Positions 868 through 20,671 of a DNA stretch of 24,643 nt are shown here, one piece after another. The DNA is taken from IMG/VR virus record IMGVR_UViG_2778261316_000001, positions 1-24,643 of that record; one strand, given 5' to 3'. Both the position numbers and the translations under genes were made by a program. Below the pieces are notes generated by a model. That model was not told the DNA's origin. It made no database searches and saw only the letters and a list, made by a program, of their open reading frames with translations. Position 1 is the stretch's first letter; the number at the start of each line of letters is the position of its first letter. Source of the DNA: a virus. Taxonomy: Duplodnaviria > Heunggongvirae > Uroviricota > Caudoviricetes.

Positions 868-868
868 G

Positions 869-1642: not shown

Positions 1643-1716
1643 GACAGACACACAAGTGGTCCTGACCTGATGTCGGGACCCACAGTATCTAAAACTAATT
1701 TAGGAGATTGATTATT

Positions 1717-2706
1717 ATGACCATGATTAAAGATAGCTATCAGTTCGGCATTGAGCCAGTACGTATCACCGACACCGACAACATTCAGGTAAACGAAGGT
1801 CTTCCGACTAACGCCGACCCTCAGGTCTATGCCTTCCAGTTAGCTAAGCTGGTGAAGACCATGCTCAATTCTGTACTTAAAGACGCTCAGGATAACATTC
1901 CGTTCCCTGTAGAAGTCCTGCCAGCTCGCAACAGCTTACCGACGCCAATCATTGCTCACACTCTGGCTGACCGCTCTGTGGTCGTTCCTGTCCGTGGTGG
2001 TAAACGACCTGAAGTCGTGACCGCTCCGTCTGGTACTGAAATCACCGTTGAGCCGATTGAGCAAGCTATCCTCGTGTCCCACCAGACCAAGCTATGGGAC
2101 GCTAAGTCATCCACCGGATTCACTCAGGGCACACTTCAGCAGGACGCTATGAACATCTGTGAGAATGTGGTCCGTACCATCAACGCTCGCATGGTCGACG
2201 TTCTGGAGTCCTCCAAACTGTTGAAGACCGTAGAGCTTCCTGTCCTGACTGGTAGCCTGACCGCTAAGGCAGACGATATCATGGACGCTCTGTATGACAA
2301 CACCGAGCCATCTTTCGGTTCTGAGGTTTCTGACTATGGCATTATCGCCCATGAGTCACACATCAAGGCTCTCTCTCGTCTGGCTGCTAAGCAGGGCTTC
2401 TCTGGTGAAGACGCTATCGTGGATATGCTGGGTACCGACATCGCGTATTACAACGGTGAGGACAAAGGTGTGTTCATGTTGGCTAAACGCTTCACGGCCC
2501 TGAGCTTCGGCTGCTTCCGTCACGACGGTGAGAATATTACGGTCGTCCTTTCACGTGATGGCGACTCTCAGTCCCACGACTTGGAAATCCTCGGTAAAGT
2601 GTTCGTTGTCGCTGAAGCTGCTACGACCGTCAAGATGGGCACTGGCTCAGCTACTGCCGTCCTGCCTGTAGTCAAACGCCTGAAGTTCACCAAGACCGAA
2701 GCGTAA
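1717..2706 (+). CDS. Hypothetical phage structural protein, possible major capsid protein, about 329 aa
   Basis: TAGGAG 10 nt upstream of ATG at 1717 (track start 1708 is TTG); T/V/A-rich, low K/R composition and size typical of capsid proteins; follows the coiled-coil ORF. Product is a guess. Confidence 0.4.
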   Translation: MTMIKDSYQFGIEPVRITDTDNIQVNEGLPTNADPQVYAFQLAKLVKTMLNSVLKDAQDNIPFPVEVLPARNSLPTPIIAHTLADRSVVVPVRGGKRPEVVTAPSGTEITVEPIEQAILVSHQTKLWDAKSSTGFTQGTLQQDAMNICENVVRTINARMVDVLESSKLLKTVELPVLTGSLTAKADDIMDALYDNTEPSFGSEVSDYGIIAHESHIKALSRLAAKQGFSGEDAIVDMLGTDIAYYNGEDKGVFMLAKRFTALSFGCFRHDGENITVVLSRDGDSQSHDLEILGKVFVVAEAATTVKMGTGSATAVLPVVKRLKFTKTEA

Positions 2707-2711
2707 GACCA

Positions 2712-2951
2712 ATGGGTAAGAGCATTAGTAAAGGCTTCAGGTCCATCGCCAAGGGCCTGACAGGTGGTGCTGGGACTCAAGGTGGGGCTTCGGTCCCGCC
2801 TCCTGTAGCTCCTCCTGTAGCTCCTCCAGATGACGCTCAGCAAGCTGTAGTCGATACCCAAGGTCAGGAGACCGAGGGAGGTAAGACCATGAGCAGAGGT
2901 AAGTCTGGACTGAATATCAGCAGGACTTCAGGTGGTGGGCTATCACTGTGA
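2712..2951 (+). CDS. Small Gly/Pro-rich hypothetical protein, 79 aa (contains PPPVAPPVAPP)
   Basis: ORF starts 6 nt after the upstream stop, same strand as the block. Confidence 0.3.
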   Translation: MGKSISKGFRSIAKGLTGGAGTQGGASVPPPVAPPVAPPDDAQQAVVDTQGQETEGGKTMSRGKSGLNISRTSGGGLSL

Positions 2952-2961
2952 TTAACTAACT

Positions 2962-2987
2962 ATGGTCTGGACCAATGGTCTGGACCT
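2962..2987. repeat. Tandem direct repeat ATGGTCTGGACC x2 (1-nt spacer)
   Basis: Read directly: ctATGGTCTGGACCaATGGTCTGGACCtg; related copies (AAGTCCAGACC, GGTCCTGACC, AATGACACAAGTCTGG, AATGACACAAGGTCTTG) lie in 3280-3375. Confidence 0.5.
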
Positions 2988-3027
2988 GTTGTTAATGTAA
3001 TAATATAACATAACAGATAGGGGCTTT

Positions 3028-3183
3028 ATGTCTATGACTTCCGCAGACCTGAAGTCCCTCCTGACTCTGGTCTATAAACTCGTGTTCCTCTCTGTGGGTC
3101 TCTACATGGTCCTCTCTGGTCGACTCGGTGTGGATGTGTTCGACACTCTGTCTAAGGCTGTGGGTGGACTTCTAGGTCCTTAG
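3028..3183 (+). CDS. Small predicted membrane protein, 51 aa (MSMTSADLKSLLTLVYKLVFLSVGLYMVLSGRLGVDVFDTLSKAVGGLLGP)
   Basis: GGGG upstream of ATG; one hydrophobic helix; last ORF before the junction region. Confidence 0.3.
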   Translation: MSMTSADLKSLLTLVYKLVFLSVGLYMVLSGRLGVDVFDTLSKAVGGLLGP

Positions 3184-3376
3184 GTTTGGACTCACAGTGG
3201 GACCGATGGTTTCTGACAGAAAAATGTGAATGACCATCTAATACATTAAGCCAGCAGACTTCCCCCCATAGGCCCACCTCAAGTCCAGACCGAGGCCACC
3301 GGGGGTCCTGACCAGCCGTCTAGACATCCAGTCTAATGACACAAGTCTGGCACAAAGAATGACACAAGGTCTTGAC

Positions 3377-4834
3377 TCAATGCAGGACCTCAGGCCTACT
3401 AAGGGTCCGCTTCAAGTCCTTGTAGTTCCAGATGAACTTAATGGGCACATCCAGTTTATCTTTGCCGCGGACGCCGTCGCGGATTGCCGTCATTTGCGGA
3501 CCATGATCGATAGCATCTGTCCAGCTGAAGCAGGAGATTGACGTTTTGACCGGATTATCCAGCACCGGCAGGCGTTCTATGGTAATGGTATAGGTCGATT
3601 CACGCGCGCCACTATTTCCGCCGCTGATGCCGACATTGCCCGTCAAAATAGGTAACATAGCAATAGCGCGTGCAGTCAGTTCGCCGTTTGCCTGGCGTTG
3701 TGGCCCCCAGCCCTGGCAGATATAAGCGGGTTTTGCTGTGCCAATTTCACGCGCCAGTTTGATGATACGGTCCTCCGGGATACCGGTAATTTGCGAAGCC
3801 CACTGCGGCGTTTTCGCTGTTTTATCGTCACCTTCACCAAGAATATAGGCTTTATAGTGACCATTTTTGGGTGCATCTGCGGGTAAGGTTTTTTCGTCAT
3901 AGCCGACGCAGTATTTATCGAGAAAAGATTGATCAACGAGATTTTCGTTAATCAATACCCAGGCAATACCCGCAACCAGCGCGGCATCGGTGCCCGGGCG
4001 AATAGGGAGCCATTCGTCTTCACGACCGGCAGCCGTATCGGTATATCGCGGATCGATAACAATCATTTTGGCGTTCGATTTCTCGCGCGCTTTTTCAAGA
4101 AGATAAGTGATGCCACCACCGCTCATGCGGGTTTCTGCCGGGTTGTTACCAAACATCACGACCAGCTTGCTGTTTTCAATATCCGTGGTGCTGTTGCCAT
4201 CATTACTGCCGTAGGTGTAGGGCATGGCACAGGAAATTTGCGCAGTGCTGTAGGAGCCATACTGGTTGAGTGAACCGCCGTAGCAGTTCATCAGGCGTTT
4301 GACCGCCGAGGCTGATGGCGAAGAGCGGGTCATATTGCCGCCAACGATCCCCGAAGAGTACTGAATATATACAGCCTCATTGCCATATTGTTCGACGGTT
4401 TTCTTCAGGCTACTGGCGATAGTATCCAGGGCTTCATCCCAGCTAATCCGTTCGAATTTGCCTTCGCCGCGTTTGCCCACGCGTTTCATTGGGTAATTCA
4501 AGCGATCGGGATGATTAATACGCCGGCGGATGGAGCGACCGCGCAAACAGGCGCGTACCTGATGGTTGCCGTACTCATCGCTGCCGGTATTGTCAGTTTC
4601 CACCCAGGTCACTTCATTATCTTTAACATGTAGACGAAGTGCACAGCGGCTACCACAGTTGACGGAACAGGCACCCCAGACCACTTTTTCGCGGGCCTGT
4701 TGTACCGATGCTGCTGCATTGCGCAGGGTAAACGGCAAAGAAAAACCGCCTGCAGCCAGCGCCAGAGAACCTATCGCGGTAGATTTAACGAGTGTTCTGC
4801 GGCTGATGCCCACCATTCGTTCATTTTTGGACAT
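3377..4834 (-). pseudogene. ynfE: ynfE truncated: N-terminal ~471 codons of DMSO-reductase-family molybdoenzyme catalytic subunit, Tat signal present
   Basis: Begins MSKNERMVGISRRTLVKSTAIGSLALAAG (twin-arginine motif) with CxxCxxxC cluster; homology to YnfE/DmsA ends after ...VPIKFIWNY (about 3422); last 14 codons (KDLKRTLSRPEVLH) are read-through into foreign DNA. Full-length protein is about 800 aa. Confidence 0.8.
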
Positions 4835-6753: not shown

Positions 6754-7095
6754 TTAGGGGGTAATAACGCGGCCAGTTCGACGGTCCAGGCAGCGCAAAG
6801 TATTGGGCTCCCAGTAGGCATTGATGTTGGCGCTTTGCTCACATTTATCGCGGTTATCAAAAGCGGCGTCGGCTTTATCCCACTCTTTTTCAGTGCGTTT
6901 ATTCACTTTCTGGCGCAGATTGCGCGTGTCATTCCATTGCTCTTTTTCCATAGCGGCGTGCTGGCGGCTTTGTGCACTGTCGCCAGACTCAATCACCAGT
7001 TTGTTAGTTTCGGCATGAACAGTTGTGCTCAATGCCAGTGCGCAAGGCAGCAGAATAGCGAGCAGGCCGATTCGTTTGCTGAGAGTGATTTTCAT
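6754..7095 (-). CDS. ynfB: YnfB, UPF0482 secreted protein, 113 aa
   Basis: [28 protein letters not shown] signal peptide; conserved neighbour of speG. Confidence 0.85.
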
Positions 7096-7229
7096 AATTC
7101 ATTCCCTGTATGAATGATTAAAGGTGATTCTACACCATCCACTGCGGACGCAAAACGTACCAGGAGGGTGTTTATATTGATGATATTATGTCGCCCTATA
7201 ACTATACATGATGTCAATAAGAGACAAAG

Positions 7230-7556
7230 ATGATTAAAACAACGTTACTATTTTTTGCTACTGCGCTGTGTGAAATTATTGGATGCTTTCTGCCCTGGTT
7301 GTGGTTAAAACGAAACGCCAGTATCTGGCTGTTGCTTCCGGCGGGGATTTCACTGGCGCTGTTTGTCTGGTTGTTAACGTTGCATCCAGCGGCGAGTGGG
7401 CGTGTTTACGCGGCTTATGGTGGCGTTTATGTCTGCACGGCGTTGATGTGGTTGCGCGTTGTGGATGGCGTGAAACTGACTCTTTATGACTGGACGGGTG
7501 CGTTGATTGCGCTTTGCGGCATGTTGATCATTGTTGCGGGCTGGGGGCGCACGTAG
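7230..7556 (+). CDS. ynfA: YnfA, UPF0060 small inner-membrane protein, 108 aa
   Basis: Four hydrophobic helices; [26 protein letters not shown] matches recalled YnfA. Confidence 0.88.
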
Positions 7557-7761
7557 GAACATAAATCCATTTTATCAATAAGATAAGAGGAAGTGTCAGC
7601 TGACAAAAGGTATTCTATTTCATCTTTTGTCAACCATTCACAGCGCAAATATACGCCTTTTTTTGTGATCACTCCGGCTTTTTTCGATCTTTATACTTGT
7701 ATGGTAGTAGCTCAGTTGCGTAGATTTCATGCATCACGACAAGCGATGCAAGGAATCGAAC

Positions 7762-8976
7762 ATGAAGATCGTAAAGGCTGAAGTTTTTGTTACCTGTCCG
7801 GGGCGTAATTTCGTCACATTAAAAATCACCACTGAGGACGGTATTACGGGCCTTGGGGATGCCACCCTCAATGGACGTGAGCTTTCCGTGGCCTCTTATT
7901 TGCAGGATCACCTTTGTCCGCAGCTTATTGGTCGCGATGCGCACCGTATCGAAGATATCTGGCAGTTTTTCTATAAAGGTGCTTACTGGCGTCGCGGTCC
8001 GGTTACGATGTCGGCCATTTCAGCGGTTGATATGGCGCTGTGGGATATTAAAGCCAAAGCTGCCAACATGCCGCTTTACCAGTTACTCGGCGGCGCGTCT
8101 CGTGAAGGGGTGATGGTTTATTGCCATACCACCGGTCACAGTATTGATGAAGCTCTGGATGATTATGCCCGTCATCAAGAGCTTGGATTCAAAGCCATCC
8201 GCGTGCAGTGCGGAATCCCTGGTATGAAAACCACCTACGGCATGTCGAAAGGTAAAGGTCTGGCTTATGAACCCGCAACCAAAGGACAGTGGCCGGAAGA
8301 GCAGCTGTGGTCGACGGAGAAATACCTCGATTTCATGCCGAAATTGTTTGACGCGGTACGTAACAAGTTTGGTTTTAATGAACATTTGCTGCATGACATG
8401 CACCATCGCTTAACGCCTATTGAAGCGGCGCGCTTTGGTAAAAGCATTGAAGATTATCGCATGTTCTGGATGGAAGACCCGACGCCTGCGGAAAACCAGG
8501 AATGCTTCCGTCTCATTCGCCAACATACCGTCACACCCATCGCAGTGGGTGAAGTCTTCAACAGCATCTGGGACTGCAAACAACTGATTGAAGAGCAACT
8601 CATCGATTATATCCGCACCACGCTGACCCATGCAGGCGGAATTACCGGTATGCGCCGGATTGCCGATTTTGCTTCGCTGTATCAGGTACGTACTGGCTCA
8701 CACGGTCCTTCCGATTTGTCACCAGTCTGCATGGCTGCGGCGCTGCACTTTGATCTGTGGGTCCCCAATTTCGGTGTCCAGGAATACATGGGTTATTCCG
8801 AACAAATGCTCGAAGTCTTCCCGCACAACTGGACTTTCGATAACGGCTATATGCATCCGGGAGACAAACCGGGTCTTGGTATCGAATTCGATGAAAAGCT
8901 GGCGGCGAAATATCCCTATGAACCTGCTTATCTACCAGTCGCACGTCTGGAAGATGGCACGCTGTGGAACTGGTAA
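7762..8976 (+). CDS. rspA: RspA, starvation-sensing protein, mannonate dehydratase-like enolase superfamily, 404 aa
   Basis: [40 protein letters not shown]... typical enolase-superfamily N-terminus; start at internal Met of track ORF; operon with rspB. Confidence 0.9.
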
Positions 8977-8987
8977 GGAGTAAGATA

Positions 8988-10007
8988 ATGAAAAGCATAT
9001 TAATTGAAAAACCGAATCAACTGGCGATTGTCGAACGTGAAATACCCACCCCGTCAGCGGGTGAAGTACGAGTAAAAGTGAAACTTGCCGGAATTTGTGG
9101 TTCAGATAGCCATATTTATCGTGGGCATAATCCTTTTGCGAAATATCCGCGCGTCATTGGTCATGAATTCTTTGGCGTCATTGATGCAGTGGGTGAAGGC
9201 GTGGAAAGCGCCAGAGTCGGTGAACGTGTTGCTGTCGATCCGGTGGTCAGCTGTGGGCATTGCTATCCGTGCTCTATAGGTAAACCGAACGTTTGTACGA
9301 CACTGGCTGTATTAGGTGTGCACGCTGACGGTGGTTTCAGTGAATATGCCGTGGTTCCGGCAAAAAATGCGTGGAAAATTCCTGAAGCAGTGGCCGATCA
9401 ATATGCGGTAATGATCGAACCTTTTACCATTGCGGCTAACGTAACCGGACATGGTCAACCGACTGAAAATGATACCGTTCTGGTTTATGGTGCCGGTCCA
9501 ATCGGCCTGACGATCGTTCAGGTATTAAAAGGCGTCTATAACGTTAAAAATGTGATTGTTGCCGATCGCATTGATGAACGACTGGAAAAAGCGAAAGAGA
9601 GCGGGGCTGACTGGGCGATTAATAACAGCCAGACACCGCTTGGCGAGATTTTCACTGAAAAAGGCATCAAGCCGACATTAATTATCGATGCGGCTTGTCA
9701 TCCTTCTATCCTGAAAGAGGCCGTAACGCTGGCTTCTCCAACGGCACGTATTGTATTGATGGGGTTCTCCAGTGAACCGTCTGAAGTGATTCAGCAAGGA
9801 ATTACCGGAAAAGAACTCTCTATTTTCTCTTCACGCTTAAATGCAAATAAATTCCCGATCGTTATCGACTGGTTAAGTAAAGGGTTAATTAAACCAGAAA
9901 AATTAATTACCCATACGTTTGATTTCCAGCATGTTGCTGATGCCATTAGTTTATTTGAACAGGATCAAAAACATTGCTGCAAAGTCTTACTCACTTTTTC
10001 TGAATAA
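8988..10007 (+). CDS. rspB: RspB, Zn-dependent alcohol dehydrogenase-like starvation-sensing protein, 339 aa
   Basis: MKSILIEKPNQL...; GHEFFG zinc-ADH motif and GAGPIG Rossmann motif; overlaps the rspA stop. Confidence 0.9.
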   Translation: MKSILIEKPNQLAIVEREIPTPSAGEVRVKVKLAGICGSDSHIYRGHNPFAKYPRVIGHEFFGVIDAVGEGVESARVGERVAVDPVVSCGHCYPCSIGKPNVCTTLAVLGVHADGGFSEYAVVPAKNAWKIPEAVADQYAVMIEPFTIAANVTGHGQPTENDTVLVYGAGPIGLTIVQVLKGVYNVKNVIVADRIDERLEKAKESGADWAINNSQTPLGEIFTEKGIKPTLIIDAACHPSILKEAVTLASPTARIVLMGFSSEPSEVIQQGITGKELSIFSSRLNANKFPIVIDWLSKGLIKPEKLITHTFDFQHVADAISLFEQDQKHCCKVLLTFSE

Positions 10008-10064
10008 TACCAATAACGGCGAGTAAGTAGTACGCATCTTACCTCTTTTTTAGAGATAACCATT

Positions 10065-10175
10065 ATGACAATAGAAAAACACGAAAGAAGCACTAAGGAT
10101 TTGGTGAAAGCAGCAGTATCGGGATGGCTGGGCACTGCGCTTGAATTTATGGATTTCAAGAGTCATACGTGTTAA
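10065..10175 (+). pseudogene. ydfJ: 5' fragment of ydfJ (MFS transporter) interrupted by prophage insertion
   Basis: Track-consistent reading gives MTIEKHERSTKDLVKAAVSGWLGTALEFMDF then an early stop; the rest of the transporter is absent and an integrase gene follows. Coordinates +/-1 nt because of a local text/track mismatch. Confidence 0.6.
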
Positions 10176-10194
10176 CTATTTGATAAATATTAAA

Positions 10195-11475
10195 TTAATT
10201 TTTCATTGCTTCGTTATGGGGCATGGTTGGGGCAAACTCGCTTAACTGTGTATTTAACAAAGCTACCTGTGCATTATTGTTTTCAGACATCCATTTTCCG
10301 TATACCTGAAATACCATTTGCGCATCTGCATGGCCCATCTGGTTTGCTATAAATGCCGGGTTAGCACCAGCTGTCAGCGACCAGCAGGCATAAGTATGTC
10401 TCGACTGATATGATTTTCGATGGCGGAGTCCGGCACGTTTTATCGCTGCGTCCCACATCTGCCTTATTGAGTCAACGGTAAAATGGTCACCATAATTTTT
10501 TACTCTCGCTGACACTTCAGGTTGAAAAACAAAGGTGCATTTTTGTTTTTCTGTTCTGCCATACTCTCTGAGGTGAACATCAATGATATGCTCTTTGCTC
10601 AGTCTCGTTAATGTCATCTGACTCCGGAGAGCGTCGATTGCTGGCTTAATAAGATGAATGACCCGATTGGTTCCCGCCTGTGTTTTTGGTACCGTGAAAC
10701 GGTCTTTTGCTAAATTTCTCCTGATCATCATTGTTCCATTTTTCAGATCTATGTCCTCCCATCCAAGTGCACACAGCTCACCAGGGCGAACGCCAGTATA
10801 AACAGAAACACACCATAAATTTTTGGCTTGCTGATTTCTGCACGCATCGATAAGACGGATGAATTCCTCCCGCGAAAGAGGATCCGGAATGGTTCTTGAT
10901 TCCTTTAATGGCGAGATCCCCTTAAACGGGTTATCTGCCAAGTAACCGTTATCAACACCAAACTGGAACACGGCGTTAAGATTTGTCATGTAATTATTTA
11001 CAGTTACAGCCGATCTCCCTGGTTGTGTAACAATATAGTTACTTTTGGGGATCTGGTATCCAGTCAGTAGCTCTTTACGAACCTCCAGTAATTTTTCTTT
11101 ATTAATCGATGAGGCAAGATTTTTTTCACCGATTATGCTCAGGATATTTTTGATGACGGCACGGTATGTGTTGAGTGATGTTTTTGCGACTTCAGTTTCT
11201 TTCAGTGCCAGAAATTTTTCAGCCAGTTCTTTTATGGTTAAATCTTGTCGGGCCTCACCAAATTTTTCCAGATTGCGTGAGGAGGGAAACTGTTTTGCAT
11301 AGTCGAAAACACCAGTTTTTATTGCGTAACAAACAGAGGCGCGTAGTTCACCTGCAACGCGCCTGTTTTTTGCTGTGTCAGGAACCCCCAGATTTTCCCT
11401 GACTCTTACGCCTTTATAAACAAACCAGATACGTAATTTCCCTCCATGGTTTTCCACGCCTGTCGGATATTTCAT
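10195..11475 (-). CDS. int: Phage tyrosine integrase (lambda/Rac IntR-like), about 426 aa
   Basis: N-terminus MKYPTGVENHGGKLRIWFVYKGVRVRE resembles IntR-type integrases; C-terminal catalytic region with HxxR and terminal Tyr context (SYQSRHTYACW...HADAQMVFQVYGKW); adjacent to the ydfJ junction. Confidence 0.85.
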   Translation of the reverse strand: MKYPTGVENHGGKLRIWFVYKGVRVRENLGVPDTAKNRRVAGELRASVCYAIKTGVFDYAKQFPSSRNLEKFGEARQDLTIKELAEKFLALKETEVAKTSLNTYRAVIKNILSIIGEKNLASSINKEKLLEVRKELLTGYQIPKSNYIVTQPGRSAVTVNNYMTNLNAVFQFGVDNGYLADNPFKGISPLKESRTIPDPLSREEFIRLIDACRNQQAKNLWCVSVYTGVRPGELCALGWEDIDLKNGTMMIRRNLAKDRFTVPKTQAGTNRVIHLIKPAIDALRSQMTLTRLSKEHIIDVHLREYGRTEKQKCTFVFQPEVSARVKNYGDHFTVDSIRQMWDAAIKRAGLRHRKSYQSRHTYACWSLTAGANPAFIANQMGHADAQMVFQVYGKWMSENNNAQVALLNTQLSEFAPTMPHNEAMKN

Positions 11476-11509
11476 TTCAACTTCTCTCATTAGTTAGTGT
11501 GGCTTTTAG

Positions 11510-11761
11510 TCAAGTAAGATGACGTCTTGGTCTCGCTGATGCCTGGCGCTCAATCCAGCGATCAATTTCTTCCAGGTTGTAAAAGCATGGGCTGTTATCC
11601 CATGGCATACCGTCATGAGCGACATGCTTATATTCCCTTCCTTCCATAAACGATTTTTCCCGGGCCTTTTTTAACGTACCTTTTTTTATTCCTTTCAGCG
11701 CAATTAACTGCTCTTCGGATACCCATTTGCCGGGAGAGACAATCATGATTACTTCGCTCAT
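11510..11761 (-). CDS. xis: Putative excisionase (YdaQ/Xis-like), 83 aa
   Basis: Small basic protein immediately upstream of int on the same strand; resembles recalled Rac YdaQ. Confidence 0.6.
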   Translation of the reverse strand: MSEVIMIVSPGKWVSEEQLIALKGIKKGTLKKAREKSFMEGREYKHVAHDGMPWDNSPCFYNLEEIDRWIERQASARPRRHLT

Positions 11762-11833
11762 CGATTTCTTTATCTCTTACATTAGACGAGCGCCGGTTGC
11801 AGAATACCAGTCACAACCGGCGACAGTTGAACA

Positions 11834-14305
11834 TTAAGAATCAGCCTGACTCGGGATCAGTTTTTGCCAGATAACTGAAACGTATTTTGCCTGGTAACGG
11901 GCGTCATCAAGTGCATTATGGCGCTCACCTTCGAATGGAATAGCCGTTCTGGCATCGAAGTCTATGGCTTTCCCCAGCTCAACGATTGTGCGTACATCGC
12001 GATCGTTGTAGTAACGCCACGGGCAGGGGATCCCCTGCCGTTCGTATGAACGGCGCAAAATCGTGTTGTCGAAGTTGGCTCCATTTCCCCAAACCTGAAC
12101 AAAAAATTCACCGGAGTTTTCGTCGATAAATTCCCGCAATTGTAACAGTGCATCATCTAACGGGATTTCATCGGTCATAATGGCAGATTGCGCTTCGCGT
12201 GATTGCTTAAGCCACCATTTAATGGTGTCCCGATCAATGACTCCGCCAGCAGTTTCCAGATCGATAGTCTTACTAAATTCCGGTCCCATATCTCCGGTTT
12301 GCGGATCGAAAAATATTGCACCTATTGAGATGATCGGGGCATCAGGATTTTTTCCCATGGTTTCAAGGTCGATCATTAGATGGTCACACGTCCTGCTGGT
12401 GGATGTGATTTCGTGATGACCGTTCACCTTAATTGAGTGATCTGCCGTCTCGCCAGTTTCATTATCGCTATTGTGATGCTGATTGCCGCCAGTGTTCTCC
12501 TTGTGTGGATGTTCAGCGCCTTCCATTTCCTCCAGATCATCTTCCTGAACTTCAACCTGATACTCTTCATCGAATGTTTCCTGGTATGTTGCGTCGCCCA
12601 TCACCGCGCCACAATCAGGGCAGTTGCCGCCGCCGGTCTGACCGCAGGCGGTGCAGACTTTTTCCACTTCCAGTTGCGCCACTGGTTCAGGCTGTTTCGT
12701 TTCTGGCTCGTTTTGTAACGCATTTGTGCTGTTTTGTTCCGCTTTTTGGTAGTTCCGTTCCGATTCATGCTGGTTCTGGTTCACAGAATCGCGGGTCTGG
12801 ATCCCCTTAACCCATTTCGGATCATTCGGGTCACTAATCCCTTCAACAAATTCACCACGTGATGCAGCAAGCAACTTATCGGCGTCAGGCTGGCTGATAT
12901 TGGCTGCCTGCATAATTTTGTTTACTTCGTCAGCGGTAACTTTTATCGGCTCTGGTTGTTCTGAATCTTCAGCGGTATCTACATTTTGCGGTAAGCCCGT
13001 GTATGTGCCATTTTTTCGGGCAAAATATTCTTCTTTTGTGATTTCAGTGGCGCCAGCAGCCAGTGCCTTATCCAGACCAGAAAGTTTGTTTGCGCGACCG
13101 TATTTTTCTCCGTCCTTATCTGCGAAGAGGAAATAGAACGGCCCCTCACGCTCTACAGATGGTTCAGCTTCCGGCGCGGTTTCATTTTTTGGGATATCAG
13201 ATACCTCAGTTTCCACTGCATCAGTTTGTGTTTCTGATGACTGGAGAACATCAACAGTGCCCAGGTCTGTTTCTTCATTCTCAAACACGCCCTTTGTCGT
13301 CAGGTATTCGCAGATATATTTGTTCAGTGCTATGGGATCTTTGTGAATGTCGATCGGACGCTCACGGACAAGGCCAAAAATAGTCTGGCGGTCGTAGCGA
13401 AGGGCATCAGGCTGTTTGCGCATTGATGCCGAGATACGCTTCCAGTCTTCGCGGTCGTTGTCGATAACTTCTTTTTTTGCCCAGCGATGGATGCTGCCGT
13501 CAATGTTTCCGGCATCCACATCACCAGGCCAGAGAGCGTAGGCCAGTTCGTCATCCAGTGTTTTCCATGTCTGCTTGTATTCGCGATGAATGGCAGCAAT
13601 GACCGGGCTGATTTTTCCTGTTGAATTTTCAGTGTACTGTTGATTGGTTCTGGCGCGGGCGAGATCAACAACAGACGTGTATTTTCCGGTTTCCTTGCGT
13701 TCACCTTCGCGACGTTTTTTCCAGATGCGCATCTCTGCCTGAATTTCGGGCCATTTAGCACCAGGAATACATTTATGCTTAACCCACCCAATGGCGTGCA
13801 ACTTAAGCTCCGGATACATGGCGTTAACTTCTGGCATTTTCATCAACGCTTCAACGATATGTCCGTCGAATGTTGCCATGTCTTCCTGCAACAATTCCTG
13901 TGCGCTAATAACCATATCAACGGTGATGTTTTCACATGTGTCGAACTTAACCATGACAGCGTTCTGTACTTCAGGGGCCAGCTTGTCAAAAGTGACGTTC
14001 ATCGGATCGGATTCAGTCTCAACCGGGACAAAAGAAGCAGACTCCTCATCCCAGCGGTTTTCCTGCATATATTCAGCATCCCATGAATCGAGGGCAGGGC
14101 GGGGTATGCCAGGTTTATCCTCGCAGACAATAAATTTATAAGCGCAGTCCTGAGCAGCCGGATAATGTTCCAGGAACTGCCAGTGAAATTTTGCTCGAGC
14201 ACGGCGTTCGTCGCCAGCTTCAATGGCTGTGGCTACAGCCACAGCGCCTTCTTCCCTTGTTGCCAGTTCGTCAGGAATAGCGGCGCAAATAAAGACTTTA
14301 CTCAT
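11834..14305 (-). CDS. RecE-like exonuclease VIII family protein with C-terminal DnaQ-like (DEDDh) 3'-5' exonuclease domain and internal Cys4 zinc ribbon, 823 aa
   Basis: Middle segment DADKLLAASRGEFVEGISDPNDPKWVKGIQTRD matches a recalled RecE segment; C-terminus has MIDLETMG, WGNGANFDN and HNALDDARY (Exo I/II/III motifs); CTACGQTGGGNCPDCG zinc ribbon. Confidence 0.7.
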   Translation of the reverse strand: MSKVFICAAIPDELATREEGAVAVATAIEAGDERRARAKFHWQFLEHYPAAQDCAYKFIVCEDKPGIPRPALDSWDAEYMQENRWDEESASFVPVETESDPMNVTFDKLAPEVQNAVMVKFDTCENITVDMVISAQELLQEDMATFDGHIVEALMKMPEVNAMYPELKLHAIGWVKHKCIPGAKWPEIQAEMRIWKKRREGERKETGKYTSVVDLARARTNQQYTENSTGKISPVIAAIHREYKQTWKTLDDELAYALWPGDVDAGNIDGSIHRWAKKEVIDNDREDWKRISASMRKQPDALRYDRQTIFGLVRERPIDIHKDPIALNKYICEYLTTKGVFENEETDLGTVDVLQSSETQTDAVETEVSDIPKNETAPEAEPSVEREGPFYFLFADKDGEKYGRANKLSGLDKALAAGATEITKEEYFARKNGTYTGLPQNVDTAEDSEQPEPIKVTADEVNKIMQAANISQPDADKLLAASRGEFVEGISDPNDPKWVKGIQTRDSVNQNQHESERNYQKAEQNSTNALQNEPETKQPEPVAQLEVEKVCTACGQTGGGNCPDCGAVMGDATYQETFDEEYQVEVQEDDLEEMEGAEHPHKENTGGNQHHNSDNETGETADHSIKVNGHHEITSTSRTCDHLMIDLETMGKNPDAPIISIGAIFFDPQTGDMGPEFSKTIDLETAGGVIDRDTIKWWLKQSREAQSAIMTDEIPLDDALLQLREFIDENSGEFFVQVWGNGANFDNTILRRSYERQGIPCPWRYYNDRDVRTIVELGKAIDFDARTAIPFEGERHNALDDARYQAKYVSVIWQKLIPSQADS

Positions 14306-14398
14306 TTTGTTTTAACCTCATGACAGATTTAAGGATGAACAAATCCCTGCCATTGCTGGCATATAAGAATGAAACCGGATATTTATTACGGAACTGTT

Positions 14399-14590
14399 TT
14401 AAAGACCTGCCGGGATTTCGATATTATCCTGGTGAATAACTTTATCGACCGGGTAACAGTTACCGGGAATTTTCTGTTCGGTTGCTGCAGTCATACACTC
14501 CTGCATTGTCCTGTGCACACTGACTGCAATATCAACTGGCTCTCCGGAAACAAGAAAAACTGTCAGAACAAGCACAAATGCTGAATTCAT
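14399..14590 (-). CDS. ydfD: YdfD-like small prophage protein, 63 aa
   Basis: MNSAFVLVLTVFLVSGEPVDIAVSV... one hydrophobic helix; start overlaps the dicB stop (ATGA); position after dicB as in Qin. Confidence 0.7.
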   Translation of the reverse strand: MNSAFVLVLTVFLVSGEPVDIAVSVHRTMQECMTAATEQKIPGNCYPVDKVIHQDNIEIPAGL

Positions 14591-14775
14591 TGTGCACATC
14601 CTTTTGGCATCAGACGTAAACGAGCCAGCATTGAAACAATGCATATTTTATTTAATAGCTCCCGTTCTTGTTTTCTCTTGTTAATGGCATCTTCAGTAAA
14701 TACTGGGTTACTGATAGTGACACCAATTTCAAAACAACCTTCAGACGTATTAACGTTTGGTAATAACGTTTTCAT
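14587..14775 (-). CDS. dicB: Cell-division inhibitor DicB, 62 aa
   Basis: MKTLLPNVNTSEGCFEIGVTISNPVFTEDAINKRKQERELLNKICIVSMLARLRLMPKGCAQ matches recalled DicB; lies just downstream of dicF on the same strand. Confidence 0.85.
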   Translation of the reverse strand: MKTLLPNVNTSEGCFEIGVTISNPVFTEDAINKRKQERELLNKICIVSMLARLRLMPKGCAQ

Positions 14776-14949
14776 TATCGCGTCCTCAACAATGAATTTT
14801 GTGATGCAGTGCCTGGTGCCTCCAGGTGACGTTAACCAGTTAACAATTAACGCCGGATACAGAGAATCCACCCATAACACTGTTTTTGGTTTTAACTGTT
14901 CCGCGTGCGCTCAGCCGCATTCACCACATCACAAAATTCACTTTAAAAA

Positions 14950-15002
14950 GGGCGGCAGAGCAGTCACGGAGTAAAACTGATACCGCCAAACGTCACCAGA
15001 AA
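14950..15002 (-). ncRNA. dicF: DicF small RNA (53 nt) with intrinsic terminator
   Basis: Reverse complement reads TTTCTGGTGACGTTTGGCGGTATCAGTTTTACTCCGTGACTGCTCTGCCGCCC followed by TTTTT, identical to the recalled K-12 DicF sequence. Confidence 0.9.
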
Positions 15003-15342
15003 ATTGATAACAGAGGGCGTTGCAGCGGGGTTGTCACTTAAGCGTATGGTCAACCTGACAACCCGGTGTCCTCAACGGGGAAGGAATAACCCCGCCATAC
15101 TTACCGCCGCGCCATTTCGCGGGTTGCCACAACCGGAAGCGCACGGTCGACGAAAATTTAACGACAGGCTATCTATGAACCAGCTACCTCGCCGTGCGCT
15201 TTCGCGTTATGGTCTGACTTTTCAGGGAAATATCCTTTCAGTAAACTGTCAGTGCCGGATGCTCACCCGTGTCCGGCGCACGCACTCCACCTCACCCGTG
15301 GAGAACTCCTTAATTACTAACCTTAGCTTTGTTGATTAGCTA

Positions 15343-15561
15343 CTAACGCGGGTATGTAATCATTCTGGCAATGCTTAATGCCGCTGCTTTTTCCAGATTG
15401 GTGATATCCTGCTCCAGAGCGGACAGATTTTCAGCCTGCTTAGCCCTGGTTTCATTGGCCCATTTCAAATCCTGCGCTGCATTAATTTTCTGGCGCATCC
15501 ACTCATAAAGTTCATCATCGGTATAGTCTGGCGCGATGATGACGGGTTCTCGTTTCTGCAT
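15343..15561 (-). CDS. ydfC: YdfC-like prophage protein, 72 aa
   Basis: Size and position (between ydfB and dicF) match the Qin dicB operon; sequence MQKREPVIIAPDYTDDELYEWMRQ... resembles recalled YdfC. Confidence 0.7.
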   Translation of the reverse strand: MQKREPVIIAPDYTDDELYEWMRQKINAAQDLKWANETRAKQAENLSALEQDITNLEKAAALSIARMITYPR

Positions 15562-15590
15562 ACTGATTCCTCGCGGTGCTGTTTCGCTTA

Positions 15591-15719
15591 TCAGCCGTTA
15601 GATTTTGCCGAACTGGAAAGCGCCTGTTTAAATTCGTTGAAGCTGAGAGCTTCTTCGCCGTCGGCAAGACCTTCCAAGTATTCTTCGTAAGCCTTTTCCA
15701 TGATTGTGTCGAAATCCAT
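15591..15719 (-). CDS. ydfB: YdfB-like prophage protein, 42 aa (MDFDTIMEKAYEEYLEGLADGEEALSFNEFKQALSSSAKSNG)
   Basis: Found by manual translation (below track cutoff); start is 2 nt after the ydfA stop; size matches K-12 YdfB. Confidence 0.6.
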   Translation of the reverse strand: MDFDTIMEKAYEEYLEGLADGEEALSFNEFKQALSSSAKSNG

Positions 15720-15720
15720 A

Positions 15721-15876
15721 TCACTCACCTGGGTTTCTTTCCAGCCAGCGACGGGCACCATTTTCGGTTTTAAACGTTTTGCTTTTGGTATACGTCATCG
15801 CGGTGAACGTACCGTCCTGGTTGGGGAACACGCCACATACCAGAGATTCGCTGTTGCCAAGATCGATAGTATCCAT
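15721..15876 (-). CDS. ydfA: YdfA-like prophage protein (DUF1391), 51 aa
   Basis: MDTIDLGNSESLVCGVFPNQDGTFTAMTYTKSKTFKTENGARRWLERNPGE; first gene downstream of the dicB-operon promoter. Confidence 0.7.
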   Translation of the reverse strand: MDTIDLGNSESLVCGVFPNQDGTFTAMTYTKSKTFKTENGARRWLERNPGE

Positions 15877-15990
15877 GCTGACCTCATTTCCCCTTAACGC
15901 CGGGGTAGCGGAACTGTTTGCTGAGAACACCGTGCGGTGTCTTGATGGAAAATAATTTAGAATAACCTAACATGAGAGGCAAGTGTTTTT

Positions 15991-16008
15991 TGTTAGATTG
16001 ATCTAACA
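15991..16008. promoter_or_regulatory. Palindrome TGTTAGA-TTGA-TCTAACA in the dicB-operon promoter region (candidate DicA operator)
   Basis: Perfect 7-bp inverted repeat between the dicA 3' end and the ydfA start; the same half-sites recur at 16502-16519. Confidence 0.5.
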
Positions 16009-16044
16009 AAAAGGGTGGGCGCAACTAATCACTTGAAAAGAATG

Positions 16045-16452
16045 TTATTTTATTGATTTATTTTTACGCGCTTTAAGCATTTCTTCGAAGAGTTTGTTGA
16101 AGTTTTCTACTCTTGCGCGCATTTCAGACAGCAAGGCTTCCTGCTCGGAAGATGGAAGAGCATCGAATAATTCGATCAATTCTTTGTGGTTGGGAGTTAG
16201 CTCTGTTTCCACATGAAGTTCTTGTGCAGGCACTGGTGCCTTGTCTTCGTCACCAAACATTAGCCATGTAGGTGAGCACTTCAGAGCATCCGCTAAAGCA
16301 AACAATCGTTTTCCGACTGGCTGGGTTTCGTCTCTTTCCCATTGTGAAATTGTGACGTGAGCAACTCCAGCGAGGCGCGCGGCTTCTCGTTGTGTTAAGC
16401 GTAATTCTTTTCGTCGCGCCAGAACTCGCTGGCCCAGGGTTCTTGTATCCAT
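16045..16452 (-). CDS. dicA: DicA, HTH-XRE repressor (cI-like), 135 aa
   Basis: N-terminal HTH (LRLTQREAARLAGVAHVTISQWERDE); C-terminal part (FALADALKCSPTWLMFGDEDK...EMRARVENFNKLFEEMLKARK) matches recalled DicA; divergent from dicC. Confidence 0.85.
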   Translation of the reverse strand: MDTRTLGQRVLARRKELRLTQREAARLAGVAHVTISQWERDETQPVGKRLFALADALKCSPTWLMFGDEDKAPVPAQELHVETELTPNHKELIELFDALPSSEQEALLSEMRARVENFNKLFEEMLKARKNKSIK

Positions 16453-16501
16453 AGTTAGGTAATTCTAATTTTTCTTGACTTAGGTATCCCGCGCACAATA
16501 A

Positions 16502-16519
16502 TGTTAGAAAAGTCTAACA
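16502..16519. promoter_or_regulatory. Palindrome TGTTAGA-AAAG-TCTAACA in the dicA-dicC intergenic region (candidate operator)
   Basis: Perfect inverted repeat just upstream of the dicC RBS (GAGGGGGG) and about 50 bp from the dicA start; a TTGACT -35-like hexamer lies upstream. Confidence 0.5.
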
Positions 16520-16533
16520 AGAGGGGGGCTTTG

Positions 16534-16761
16534 ATGCTTAAAGTTGACGCAATTACTTTTTTTGGCAGCAAAACAAAGCTTGCCAATGCCGCAGGAGTGA
16601 GGCTGGCAAGTGTTGCTGCTTGGGGGATACTGGTTCCTGAAGGTCGCGCGATGCGTCTACAGGAGGCATCTGGCGGGGAGCTTCAGTATGATCCCAAAGT
16701 TTATGATGAATATCGTAAGACGAAGCGGGCGGGGCGGTTGAACAATGAAAATCACTCCTGA
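16534..16761 (+). CDS. dicC: DicC, Cro-like regulator, 75 aa
   Basis: MLKVDAITFFGSKTKLANAAGVRLASVAAW...; start at internal Met after the RBS (the track start at 16501 would include the operator). Confidence 0.8.
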   Translation: MLKVDAITFFGSKTKLANAAGVRLASVAAWGILVPEGRAMRLQEASGGELQYDPKVYDEYRKTKRAGRLNNENHS

Positions 16762-17266
16762 ACAGGCTCGTGAGGCTCTGGATGCCTGGATATGTCGACC
16801 AGGAATGACACAGGAGCAGGCGACGATATTAATCACTGAAGCATTCTGGGCTTTGAAAGAGCGCCCGAACATCGATGTTCAGCGTGTCACAGATGAAGGT
16901 GGCGCGGTTGATCAGCGAGCGCTTGGTGTTAATCGAGTGAAGATATTCGAACGCTGGAAGGCTATCGACACCAGGGATAAGCGTGAAAAGTTCACGGCGC
17001 TAGTGCCTGCGATTATGGAGGCTATCCGGATTAGTGATTTCAGGTTGTATCGTGAAATTACTGACGGAAAAAGCATCACGTGCATGATCGCCGGGTTAAA
17101 CAAAGAATATGGCGATGTGGTGGAGTCCGGACTGCTTTTTGCTGATCCTGCCGTAGTGGATCGTGAAACTGACGAACTTATAGAAAAAGCAATTGCTTTC
17201 AAGCTTGCGTATCGACAGCAATACCAACAAAAAGCTGGATGGAATTATGAGCCTTCTTTTTGCTGA
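16745..17266 (+). CDS. Hypothetical prophage protein, 173 aa, in the cII/YdaT position
   Basis: ORF overlapping the dicC end and the replication gene start; no motif recognised. Confidence 0.5.
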   Translation: MKITPEQAREALDAWICRPGMTQEQATILITEAFWALKERPNIDVQRVTDEGGAVDQRALGVNRVKIFERWKAIDTRDKREKFTALVPAIMEAIRISDFRLYREITDGKSITCMIAGLNKEYGDVVESGLLFADPAVVDRETDELIEKAIAFKLAYRQQYQQKAGWNYEPSFC

Positions 17267-18190
17267 ACGCCCACTGGTTATAAACACGCAGCTGGCAATG
17301 AAAATTGGCTTAAACGAAGCCATTGTTTTGCAACAACTGCACTACTGGTTGAGAGATACCAACTCCGGCATGGAATGTGATGGTGTTCGCTGGATTTATA
17401 ACACAACGGAACAATGGCTGGAACAGTTCCCATTCTGGTCAGAGTCAACGTTAAAGCGCGCGTTTGCAAGTCTGAAAACGCTGGGGCTTTTGCGTTGTGA
17501 AAAGCTCAATAAATCAAAGCGCGATATGACCAATTTCTACTTTTAGATGGTGGCAAATTGAGCGAATCCATCGGTTCAAAATGCGCCGCTCCATCAGGTC
17601 AAAATGACACGATGGAAGAGGTCAAAATGAAACGCTCCATTGGTTCAAAACGACCCAATGTCATCGGGTCAAAATGGCCTGATGATCTTACAGAGAATAC
17701 AACAGAGATTACTACAGAGAATAAAAACACTTTTCGTCCGGAAGCTTCGCAACCGGACCCGCAGACGACTGAACAGGATTCTTTAACCCGGAACTCCGAC
17801 GCGGTTGTGTTTAGTGCGAAAAAACGCCAGTGGGGTAGCAGGGAGGATTTGGCGTGTGCGCAGTGGATCTGGGGGCGGATCGTGGGTCTCTACGAACAGG
17901 CAGCCAGTGATGATGGCGAGATCATGCGACCAAAAGAGCCTAACTGGACTGCCTGGGCCAATGACGTGCGCACAATGCGGATGCTGGATGGCAGAAGCCA
18001 CAGACAAATTTGCGAAATGTTTGGTCGGGTTCAGCGAGATCCATTCTGGGTAAAAAACATCATGAGCCCGTCAAAGCTCCGCGAAAAATGGGACGAACTG
18101 GTCATCCGCCTGGGACGTTCACCTGTACAGCGTTGTGTTAATCATATTTCTGAACCGGATACAGAAATTCCGCCTGGTTTCAGAGGATAA
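17247..18190 (+). pseudogene. Phage replication initiator (O-like) split into two frames at a T-run, with origin iterons inside
   Basis: N-terminal ~100 aa (MSLLFAERPLVINTQLAMKIGLNEAIVLQQLHYWL...) in frame 0 ends at 17546; continuation in another frame from about 17513/17558 to 18190; frames meet at ctacTTTTagatgg. Confidence 0.55.
17562..17680. repeat. Five iterons (consensus TCCATYGGTTCAAAATG) at 23-24 bp spacing, followed by an A+T-rich stretch: candidate prophage replication origin
   Basis: CAAAATG/CAAAACG cores at 17577, 17600, 17623, 17646, 17670; downstream acagagaatacaacagagattactacagagaataaaaac. Confidence 0.65.
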
Positions 18191-18230
18191 GTGTTGATTT
18201 CAGGTCATGAGGTAATTTTAAGGGGGACTT

Positions 18231-18653
18231 GTGGCAAAAGTTTTTACACAAGAAGAGCGGGAAAAAATTAAATGGCAGGTGGTGGAACTCGTGCGCCAGA
18301 GCGGCCGTGAGACGTTACGGCAACTGGAAGCTAAAACAGGTGCGACTAGATATCTGATGAGCGTTCTTGCCAGAGAGCTGGTAGCCAGTGGCGATGTATA
18401 CAACTCCGGCTACGGGTTATTCCCCTCTGAACAGGCGCGTAAGGACTGGCAAAACGCCCGCAAAAAACTCTCGAGGGCAAAGGTGAAGAAACCTGCTGTG
18501 GTTGATCCGGACCTTATCTGGTCATCACCTGACGGAGAAATACGTCGCTACGACAGTCGCCTAAACATAATCTGTCGCGAGTGCCGGAAGAGCGAAGTTA
18601 TGCAGCGCATACTGGCTTTCTATCAGGGTAATTTTCAGGACGTGGCGCAGTGA
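18231..18653 (+). CDS. Hypothetical prophage protein, 140 aa (GTG start)
   Basis: ORF after the replication gene, overlapping the methyltransferase start (GTGA); basic, with a CxxC pair (CRECRK). Confidence 0.4.
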   Translation: MAKVFTQEEREKIKWQVVELVRQSGRETLRQLEAKTGATRYLMSVLARELVASGDVYNSGYGLFPSEQARKDWQNARKKLSRAKVKKPAVVDPDLIWSSPDGEIRRYDSRLNIICRECRKSEVMQRILAFYQGNFQDVAQ

Positions 18654-19139
18654 GTGCACCGGCAACCATTCTTGATATGTGCTGTGGCAGCCGCATGTTC
18701 TGGTTCGATAAGTCTGACAAACGGGCGATATTCAGCGATATCAGAAAAGAAGGATACACATTACGCAATGGGAGACGCTTGATTATCAGCCCTGACATTA
18801 TCGCAGATTTTCGTGCATTATCATTTGCAGACGCATCTTTTTCGATGGTTGTATTAGACCCTCCGCATCTTGAGCGTGTTGGTGATAACGCCTGGATGGG
18901 AAAGAAATATGGACGGCTGAATAAAGATGCCTGGCGTGATGATTTGCGACAGAGATTTAAAGAAGCTTTTCGGGTGTTGAGGCCGCACGGCGTTCTGATT
19001 TTTTAATGGAATGAAACGCAAATACCGGTAAGCCAGATTCTGGCACTGACAGATAGAAAGCCTGTTATCTGTCAACGAACAGGGAAAAAACGATAAAACC
19101 CACTGGATTATTTTTATGAAAGAGGCATCCAGTGAGTAG
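18650..19139 (+). pseudogene. Phage DNA methyltransferase (DPPH motif) disrupted by an in-frame TAA and a frameshift in an A-run
   Basis: ILDMCCGSR (motif I-like) and VVLDPPH (motif IV); in-frame TAA at 19004-19006 inside ...GVLIF*WNETQIPVSQ...; reading shifts frame in AAAAAA at 19085-19090 to continue ...NDKTHWIIFMKEASSE. Confidence 0.6.
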
Positions 19140-19616
19140 ATTCGTAAGGTTACAGATACGTATATCTGAATAATTAAATTCAGTTCTGTAAATAAAACTT
19201 AATCCTTAACCGGATGGATTTCTGCACCCTCAGAACATCAGGAGGCCGCCCGAAAGGGCGGTAGTGAAATGCGAAAGTTCAAAATTATTATTGAAACGGA
19301 AATAGCTGGTGGAGATTTTGAGGATGTATTCGAAGTGGACGATGACGCAACACCTGATGAAATTCATGACGGAGCATAAGAAATTTTCTTTAACTACTGC
19401 AATTACTCATACCACGAAATAAAAGACGATGAGGAAGAACAAAGTGGCTGATTTTTGTTCAGCTAAATATAACATCAGTTTTGAAGAGCGGGATGAACTA
19501 TTAATGGACTATGGTGAATTACGCGGTGGAAGTGCTGCTGATGTCGAATCCTAGCGTGATGACTATGAAGCGGGAAAAACTCCGGTCGAAGCATATTGTG
19601 ATGAGTGGGGCGATGA

Positions 19617-19871
19617 ATGAGCGAGATTAATTATCAGGAAGGGCATGAAACGGCGGGGCAAGCAAAACCAGTGGCATGGCGATATCGCTACGTGAAAAAA
19701 GCGTTACGGACTTTCAGGGGAAGTAGTGGTCTGGTGACTGGAAATATGTACCGAAAAAAGAGGATTGTAACGACAGGCCGAACTATCAAATTCAGGCCTT
19801 ATTCACTGCCTCACCAGTCCCGGTTACATCAGAAGAACTGGTTAAAGCTGTGCACTTTTATGAACAACTAA
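19617..19871 (+). CDS. Hypothetical protein, 84 aa, possibly frameshifted
   Basis: Track ORF; an alternative frame from about 19700 gives a more protein-like continuation (WKYVPKKEDCNDRPNYQIQALFTASPVPVTSEELVKAVHFYEQLKREN) without a start codon. Confidence 0.3.
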   Translation: MSEINYQEGHETAGQAKPVAWRYRYVKKALRTFRGSSGLVTGNMYRKKRIVTTGRTIKFRPYSLPHQSRLHQKNWLKLCTFMNN

Positions 19872-20157
19872 AACGCGAAAATCCACCAACATCCGGCAAC
19901 TAGATTAATGGATTAACTATGTCGGTTAAACGACCAGCCAACTGAAAAAGCGGAAACCTGATTACAGGTTGCCAGATAAGGCAATGAGCTACCTGGCGCG
20001 GAACGGGCTGATAAGTATGGGGAATGTTTTACGATGAACCTTTAGACTAAAGAGTTTGTAACGCTATGTAAGTGATTTTTTCTGGTTTAGATATTTATAT
20101 GTCCGGCCAAATTGAGGTGTGTTTAAATGTAATTGCACATTGATTGTAGGAGGAATA

Positions 20158-20337
20158 ATGAAAAACGCATTGCAGTTTTTGTTTGTTGCGTTCTGGTTGT
20201 TCGCATCATGTATGCCCATCATCTTCACAGCAAGGTATATGGAAAAAGTTGATGTTTTGATATTAATATTTGGATATATAAATGCCCTTTTTTTAGGGGT
20301 GTTCATGGCGGTCATGTGCATTGAATACTGGCGGTAA
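20158..20337 (+). CDS. Small two-helix membrane protein, 59 aa
   Basis: Strong RBS (TAGGAGGAATAATG), A+T-rich upstream region; MKNALQFLFVAFWLFASCMPIIFTARYMEKVDVLILIFGYINALFLGVFMAVMCIEYWR. Confidence 0.4.
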   Translation: MKNALQFLFVAFWLFASCMPIIFTARYMEKVDVLILIFGYINALFLGVFMAVMCIEYWR

Positions 20338-20643
20338 ATACAGCGAACTCCATTGGTTTAGTTGGATATTTACTGTGCTGGACAAAAACGGTTTGCGGGG
20401 AAATCTTAGTTAAGTAGAATGACTGCGGGTGCTTGAGGCTATCTGCCTCGGGCATGGACACCAACGGCAGATAGAGAAAAGCCCCAGTTAACATTACGCG
20501 TCCTGCAAGACGCTTAACATTAATCTGAGGCCAATTTCATGCTAGACACATGTAGGTTAGCCTCTTACGTGCCGAAAGGCACGGAGAAGCAGGCTATTGT
20601 TAACACCAAGCTGTAATGTCCCCTTTGAACCATTCTAAAATGT

Positions 20644-20670: not shown

Positions 20671-20671
20671 C

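Follow-up and report, generated by a model that had tools for sequence, protein, structure and literature searches.

A complete integrase–excisionase module beside a truncated ydfJ in Escherichia coli: the likely attL end of a Qin/mEp460-type prophage

The window, by which we mean the whole 24,643-nucleotide stretch that was analysed (IMG/VR record IMGVR_UViG_2778261316_000001), contains E. coli chromosomal DNA that runs through rspA (7729–8976), rspB and the 5′ stub of ydfJ and passes into phage DNA from position 10158. The final host gene ahead of the insertion is rspB, which encodes a Zn-dependent oxidoreductase (8988–10007, plus strand; so annotated by RefSeq in the identical sequences of strain EA7 and isolate 12). 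The ATG of ydfJ lies at 10065 and its codons 1–31, MTIEKHERSTKDLVKAAVSGWLGTALEFMDF, end at 10157; the frame then continues through five phage codons to a stop reached by 10175, giving a 36-residue ORF of the ynfP type (10065–10175, plus strand) that is nearly identical to ynfP of K-12, with one mismatch across the shared ∼265 nt. An earlier note on this DNA had ydfJ cut after about 31 codons and the prophage arm extending over 10060–11800, and both statements prove accurate on reading the sequence. ydfJ encodes an MFS transporter and lies between rspAB, which it follows directly, and ydfI. Among complete genomes the nearest is that of isolate 12 from Hungary (NZ_CM194533.1), with two mismatches to the window in 22.8 kb; the other differences are an additional copy of ISSen4 and the window's initial 77 nt.

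Beyond the stub, the int gene (10195–11475, minus strand) encodes a 426-residue tyrosine recombinase whose N-terminus forms an arm-binding domain; use of an upstream ATG at 11490 would lengthen the product to 431 residues. Pfam assigns residues 201–392 of Int to the Phage_integrase family (PF00589; 66.2 bits against a cut-off of 27.1, E = 3.9e-18) and residues 4–67 to Arm-DNA-bind_2 (PF12167; 84.4 bits, E = 5.5e-24). Immediately upstream, with 34 nt between its stop codon and the int start, xis (11510–11761, minus strand) encodes an 83-residue excisionase of the DUF1233 family (PF06806, 'putative excisionase'; 108.1 bits, E = 1.6e-31, residues 5–73 of 83). Both ORFs are uninterrupted and, together with the Pfam matches, bear out the full-length integrase and the excisionase that had been proposed to follow the ydfJ stub. 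The identical proteins are present in RefSeq as WP_000876979.1 (integrase) and WP_000005552.1 (excisionase), in genomes with 100% identity, and the exact Int and Xis proteins are each found on at least 1000 contigs.

A search of PDB sequences for a close solved homologue of Int returned distant tyrosine recombinases only, the best being Tn1549 Int (E = 4e-9), and λ Int was not among them. Alignment to this distant structure (PDB code 6EMY) suggests R230, K264, Y356-x-x-R359, H382 and the nucleophile Y392 as catalytic candidates, with Tyr356 occupying the place of the first His of the H-x-x-R motif. The O157 allele of Int shares the YQSRHT motif, and the Ints of phages mEp460_ev081 and PhiR42_1 agree with the window at position 356; the tyrosine is probably tolerated. 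Int differs from that of mEp460_ev081 at two residues (H301Y and Q311H) and from that of PhiR42_1 at another two (G22D and A46S), while Xis is identical to that of both phages compared. A dN/dS of 0.05 relative to the O157 allele (93.7% identical) indicates that int is under purifying selection.

Upstream of xis and int, in one leftward operon with them, is the gene for an 823-residue exonuclease (11834–14305, minus strand), the full-length counterpart of the K-12 pseudogene ydfE; the protein contains a Pfam Rv2179c-like 3′–5′ exoribonuclease domain (2.3e-67) and is 88.8% identical to that of mEp460_ev081. Further upstream is the dicBF operon (14399–15001, minus strand; RefSeq), comprising ydfD, dicB and the DicF sRNA (14950–15001; Rfam, 76.7 bits, E = 1.4e-15). 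The immunity region (16045–16761) encodes a DicA-type HTH repressor (16045–16452, minus strand; Pfam HTH_3) and a DicC/Cro-type regulator (16534–16761, plus strand). The repressor is 56% identical to DicA of K-12 and 50% identical to the mEp460 repressor; for the Cro-like protein the corresponding values are 85.5 and 76%. DicA is described as repressing dicBp in K-12 and the dicBF operon of that strain as being under layered control (PMC10448788). By analogy with dicBp, the immunity region may control the leftward operon that ends in xis-int. A consensus scan for promoters and terminators across 9900–12100 was uninformative, with fewer promoter-like matches than in shuffled sequences and terminators at chance level.

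Four att sequences were aligned: the window attL, the attR of isolate 12 and the attP sites of mEp460_ev081 and PhiR42_1. All four share an 11-bp core, TTATGGATTTC, the attL copy of which spans 10147–10157 within codons 28–31 of ydfJ. The K-12 annotation of a 427-residue YdfJ starting at the core arises because the core holds an in-frame ATG (Met29). Insertion in ydfJ at this core, adjoining rspB, corresponds to the Qin/mEp460-type site. The attL consists of a host left half and a phage right half and the attR of isolate 12 of a phage left half and a host right half, in exact agreement with the Campbell model. A matching core repeat, which the earlier note proposed to look for at the far end of the prophage, is present in isolate 12 at the junction where ydfJ resumes (7069–7079 of locus L004); the window itself contains no second att copy, and the attR was taken from this nearest complete genome. 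The P arm of the isolate 12 attR is identical to mEp460 attP across 300 nt, and the P′ arm of the window attL (10158–10260, overlapping the int 3′ end) has one mismatch in 150 nt to the attP of mEp460_ev081 and likewise to that of PhiR42_1.

Joining the host halves of attL (left) and attR (right) yields an uninterrupted ydfJ, and this exact sequence occurs, as an empty attB, in 2009 of 5426 complete E. coli genomes. The attL, attR, attP and attB sequences are consistent with a single crossover inside TTATGGATTTC, and the junctions expected on excision would be ...GAATTATGGATTTCAAGAG... for attP and ...GAATTTATGGATTTCCAGTTA... for attB. Three IMG/VR contigs contain the exact attP junction, a count that is uninformative on excision. 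The P′ arm also contains a candidate arm-type pair, TGGGGCATGGTTGGGGCA, at 10217–10234. The pattern TGGGRCA-N4-TGGGRCA, which was derived from the two sites themselves, occurs once per arm (P and P′) and has no further copy in the window or in the 45.9-kb phage genome; since the motif was defined post hoc, the pairs are candidate arm-type sites and offer a lead only.

Alignment to K-12 Qin across the intQ and ydfE region, the check suggested in the earlier note, was performed with blastn against MG1655 and yielded exact deletion boundaries as well as collinearity. Window positions 6903–11354 and 13539–16125 align, and the 2,184 bp between them are absent from K-12. This segment (11355–13538) comprises int codons 1–40, xis and two-thirds of the exonuclease gene on its 3′ side; what K-12 has between the alignment ends coincides with an annotated IS2E remnant of ∼0.7 kb, which the annotated intQ pseudogene abuts. 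The loss from the K-12 int amounts to its first 121 nt, i.e. 40 codons of the arm-binding domain with the start codon. In other respects the two elements have much in common: the ydfJ site and 11-bp core are the same, the attL junctions are one mismatch apart, the int remnant is 99.2% identical over 1197 nt (99.7% for host flank plus int) and the elements are collinear over the ydfE 5′ end, ydfD, dicB, DicF, ydfCBA, ydfW, flxA, ydfV, relBE, hokD and rem. K-12 Qin differs in lacking 11355–13538, with the IS2E remnant in its place, and a 4.8-kb segment at 17025–21827 (YdaT, the O-like gene, DUF977, methyltransferase, sok and the ISEsa1 remnant), and in carrying another repressor allele with 56% identity. 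The collinearity from the ydfE 5′ end through rem (blastn and Rfam) supports the original description of the element as a Qin-type prophage, and the dicBF operon, a DicA/DicC-type immunity region and relBE-hokD-rem are all present (Rfam, RefSeq and blastn).

Because the IS2E remnant in K-12 replaces 11355–13538, the window retains the pre-deletion arrangement. The premise that the K-12 integrase gene was broken by an insertion sequence holds in so far as intQ is a pseudogene truncated by an IS2 remnant, but the event was a 2.2-kb replacement that also took xis and not a simple insertion. K-12 Qin would then be the more decayed derivative, having lost int codons 1–40, xis and most of the exonuclease gene to an IS2-associated event. 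Excision of Qin was undetectable in K-12, which was put down to the inactive intQ (PMC3105296).

Four sequenced phage genomes carry the int-xis arm with 99.2–99.5% DNA identity: mEp460_ev081 (LR597641), Tritos (OV696610), HannyBb (PP925841) and PhiR42_1 (PV340562; host recorded as E. coli ECOR13). They share the exo-xis-int-attP module with the window, attP sits directly beside the int 3′ end in each, their attP arms are the phage-side halves of attL and attR, and the dicB, rem and pinQ modules are shared as well. In contrast to the element studied here, the records of these coliphages are complete genomes of 45–49 kb in which the morphogenesis and replication modules are full; in the window element the O-like gene is frameshifted, IS remnants are present and the immunity region is a different one, and isolate 12 additionally lacks 18.9 kb from terminase to tail fibre. 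In published accounts mEp460_ev081, which came from infant faeces and has dicB, dicF, dicAC and rem, is called a functional temperate phage (PMC10448788; PMC10910852).

In outline the arrangement resembles that of phage λ: the tyrosine recombinase begins with an arm-binding domain, the gene for a small excisionase lies directly upstream, attP adjoins the 3′ end of int, the two genes close the leftward early operon, and integration and excision proceed according to the Campbell model. There is no close sequence kinship with λ; the window Int has a PF12167 arm domain and Xis belongs to DUF1233. The λ target is intergenic and its core is 15 bp long, whereas the target here is an 11-bp core inside the protein-coding gene ydfJ. 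Taking the host flank, the att structure and the gene content together, we consider it very probable that 10060–11800 comprises the attL and the site-specific recombination module of a Qin/mEp460-type lambdoid prophage in E. coli ydfJ.

The int-xis segment has a match in 3057 of 5426 complete E. coli genomes, with coverage of at least 80% in 2355 (∼43%), and the rspB-int-xis-exo junction is covered to at least 80% in 2104; in K-12-lineage genomes the match is limited to query positions 1–1197 of the segment. Since ∼43% of complete genomes carry the arm, the broken copy of K-12 is the exception. An intact int as a rare or remarkable feature is ruled out, being the majority state among carriers (2355 of 3057 at 80% coverage or more). 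Qin-site prophages of 11 to 97 kb have been reported in 48% of genomes, and Ramisetty and Sudhakari found most Qin hits to have a mutated intQ (PMC6379469); at the level of large deletions our counts do not support 'most', as 2355 of the 3057 carriers cover at least 80% of int-xis. Stx2a prophages are also integrated at ydfJ (PMC8309913), and 15 records of Stx2a-converting phages contain 90–93% relatives of the window int.

The intact arm is the normal state in E. coli, already known and fully annotated in RefSeq. The intQ pseudogene of K-12 arose by decay specific to that lineage, and ydfJ in this species usually holds a prophage in which int and xis are both complete. The proposal that the window preserves the ancestral state stands in the sense that the phage genomes share the exo-xis-int-attP order, with K-12 differing only by the IS2-associated replacement; it does not stand as the description of a rare relic, the intact state being common. 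All of this can already be read from RefSeq annotations and from the literature on Qin-like prophages and mEp460_ev081, and has little import beyond bookkeeping.

Outside the recombination module the element is damaged. Its O-like/primosomal replication gene (17247–18190, plus strand) is broken by a 22-bp frameshifting deletion at ∼17539; the gene is 966 nt long and intact in EA7 and mEp460_ev081, and appears as two ORFs in the window and in the annotation of isolate 12. The methyltransferase gene is annotated as frameshifted (RefSeq, identical sequence), a transposase remnant of the ISEsa1 type at 20672–22012 is annotated as incomplete and an IS421 copy starts at 24569. In isolate 12, where the element is ∼30.4 kb in size and IS1 adjoins pinQ, an 18.9-kb deletion joins the gene for the terminase large subunit to the tail-fibre gene, with the loss of all head and tail genes. 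EA7 has an int-xis region identical to that of the window and retains a complete morphogenesis module. These genomes show a decay series that leads from a free phage of the mEp460 type through a nearly complete prophage such as that of EA7 and the window/isolate 12 element to Qin of K-12. A complete inducible phage is ruled out by the frameshift in the replication gene and, in isolate 12, by the loss of the head and tail genes.

We propose that an ancestral phage integrated by Int-mediated recombination of attP with TTATGGATTTC at codons 28–31 of ydfJ, which would have split the gene into the 31-codon 5′ stub of the ynfP ORF and a 3′ remainder past attR. Read from a dicA-controlled promoter, the leftward early operon would comprise ydfABC, DicF, dicB, ydfD and the exonuclease gene, with xis and int at its distal end, and derepression might, by analogy with λ and with DicA/dicBp of K-12, lead to transcription through both. 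Int and Xis, together with host bending proteins, could then recombine attL with attR, releasing a circle of ∼30 kb and restoring ydfJ. All components required in cis and in trans are there and match those of sequenced phage genomes; expression of the arm and actual excision of the element are inferred, and excision competence is plausible. As Int, Xis, attL and the isolate 12 attR are intact and barely differ from their counterparts in mEp460_ev081 and PhiR42_1, the suggestion that the prophage is 'possibly still excisable' is reasonable. The prophage being otherwise defective, excision would cure the element and yield no phage.

It is possible, though we rather doubt it, that int and xis are intact yet inert in the host, with too little expression to be of use: repression may be tight, the repressor allele may be non-inducible or transcription may stop inside the dicBF operon. 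In that case the element would be no less 'grounded' than Qin in K-12, its ORFs being whole only for lack of time to decay. The loss of replication and, in isolate 12, of morphogenesis leaves no phage-level selection on int, and in the consensus scan of 9900–12100 no promoter-like signal stood out near xis-int. The layered control described for dicBF of K-12 could keep xis-int silent (PMC10448788), and among the cryptic prophages of K-12 that have an intact integrase, most excise at less than 1e-5 per cell (PMC3105296). The same study nevertheless detected low-frequency excision in seven of nine K-12 cryptic prophages and put down the failure of Qin and CP4-44 to excise to an inactive or missing integrase (PMC3105296), and in the present case Int, Xis and the two att arms hardly differ from those found in sequenced phage genomes.

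An improbable alternative to descent of the arm with the resident prophage is that a newly arriving mEp460-like phage replaced a decayed end, either by recombining with an older Qin remnant or by integrating in tandem next to it. The element is indeed a mosaic: its int-xis and pinQ-to-attR ends are ∼99.5% identical to mEp460, the alignment to mEp460 over 10142–15208 is 95% identical overall and the immunity region is non-homologous. Tandem prophages also occur at this site, O157 LSU61 having an attP-like junction beside int, and ydfJ prophages are reported to vary by recombination with similar prophages (PMC10132054). The int remnant of K-12 is, however, equally close to the window (99.2% over 1197 nt and 99.7% for flank plus int), so that the ends are conserved in all lineages with no sign of a recent strain-specific replacement, and the window contains no second att junction. 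We think it very unlikely that the ∼30-kb defective prophage, which can neither replicate nor make virions, has been kept excision-competent as a reversible switch that rebuilds ydfJ, as in the 'active lysogeny' of other bacteria; if it were such a switch, excision would relink full-length ydfJ to its native upstream region.

The preferred reading, that of an intact recombination module in a defective prophage, has a bearing on K-12 itself. Since both att cores persist in K-12 Qin, Int and Xis of the window, supplied in trans, should excise it cleanly, and their expression in K-12 would provide a direct test of the published assumption that the defective intQ alone traps Qin in the chromosome.

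Comparison of the immunity region (16045-16761) with those of K-12 and the temperate coliphage mEp460_ev081 showed a typical lambdoid mosaic. The DicA-type repressor shares 56% identity with K-12 DicA and 50% with the mEp460_ev081 repressor, and its Cro/DicC-type partner shares 85.5 and 76%, respectively. The repressor is a third immunity allele, and findings on DicA/Rem control made in K-12 may therefore not carry over directly to this prophage. The O-like/primosomal replication gene (17247-18190) is frameshifted by a 22-bp deletion at ~17539 relative to both EA7, an E. coli strain identical to the window in int-xis, and mEp460_ev081.

Each of the two att arms, P and P', contains a single copy of a paired heptamer, TGGGRCA-N4-TGGGRCA, and the P' copy lies within the 3' coding end of int. 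It was located at 10217-10234 in the window, at 6932-6949 in the isolate 12 (NZ_CM194533.1) sequence that reaches attR, and at 24624-24641 and 24831-24848 in the 45.9-kb phage genome. No further copies were found in the window or in that phage genome. The pairs, for which the pattern was drawn up post hoc from the sites themselves, are candidates for arm-type Int binding sites. The int allele of E. coli O157:H7 LSU61 shows 93.7% DNA identity over int-xis, and what precedes it (positions 1380-1540 of the LSU61 sequence) is not ydfJ but an attP-like junction of P arm, core and P' arm, an arrangement that suggests tandem prophages with the ydfJ core in common.

The 4.8-kb segment absent from K-12 Qin includes a sok-type antisense RNA (20427-20598, + strand; Rfam RF01794, 104 bits) directly upstream of an ISEsa1/IS1202-like transposase ORF (20672-22012, + strand), which carries HTH and rve_3 domains and is incomplete according to RefSeq. 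The RNA locus looks like a hok/sok remnant. Just past rem, an IS421 (IS4-like) copy is inserted, and the window closes 75 nt into it (24569-24643); the same insertion is present in isolate 12, and in most other genomes the match to the window stops at 24568.

At the left end, a small integrative island interrupts ynfE, and its right part occupies positions 1-3421, followed by a ynfE fragment on the minus strand (3377-4834). This right part carries genes for KilA-N (112-867) and DUF6971 (1133-1642) proteins, as well as a 332-residue ORF with no Pfam match (1708-2706). ynfE is intact in EA7, and the match of that strain to the window starts only at 3422. In isolate 12, which differs from the window at bases 1-77, ISSen4 splits the 332-residue ORF, and the start of the island adjoins the other ynfE fragment and carries its own 526-residue tyrosine recombinase.

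Outside the window, a 1031-residue ORF of isolate 12 (602-3694 in the attR-reaching sequence) is wrongly annotated as 'terminase gpA endonuclease subunit': it joins the 5' part of a terminase large-subunit gene to the 3' part of a tail-fibre gene, a fusion produced by an 18.9-kb deletion of the head and tail genes.
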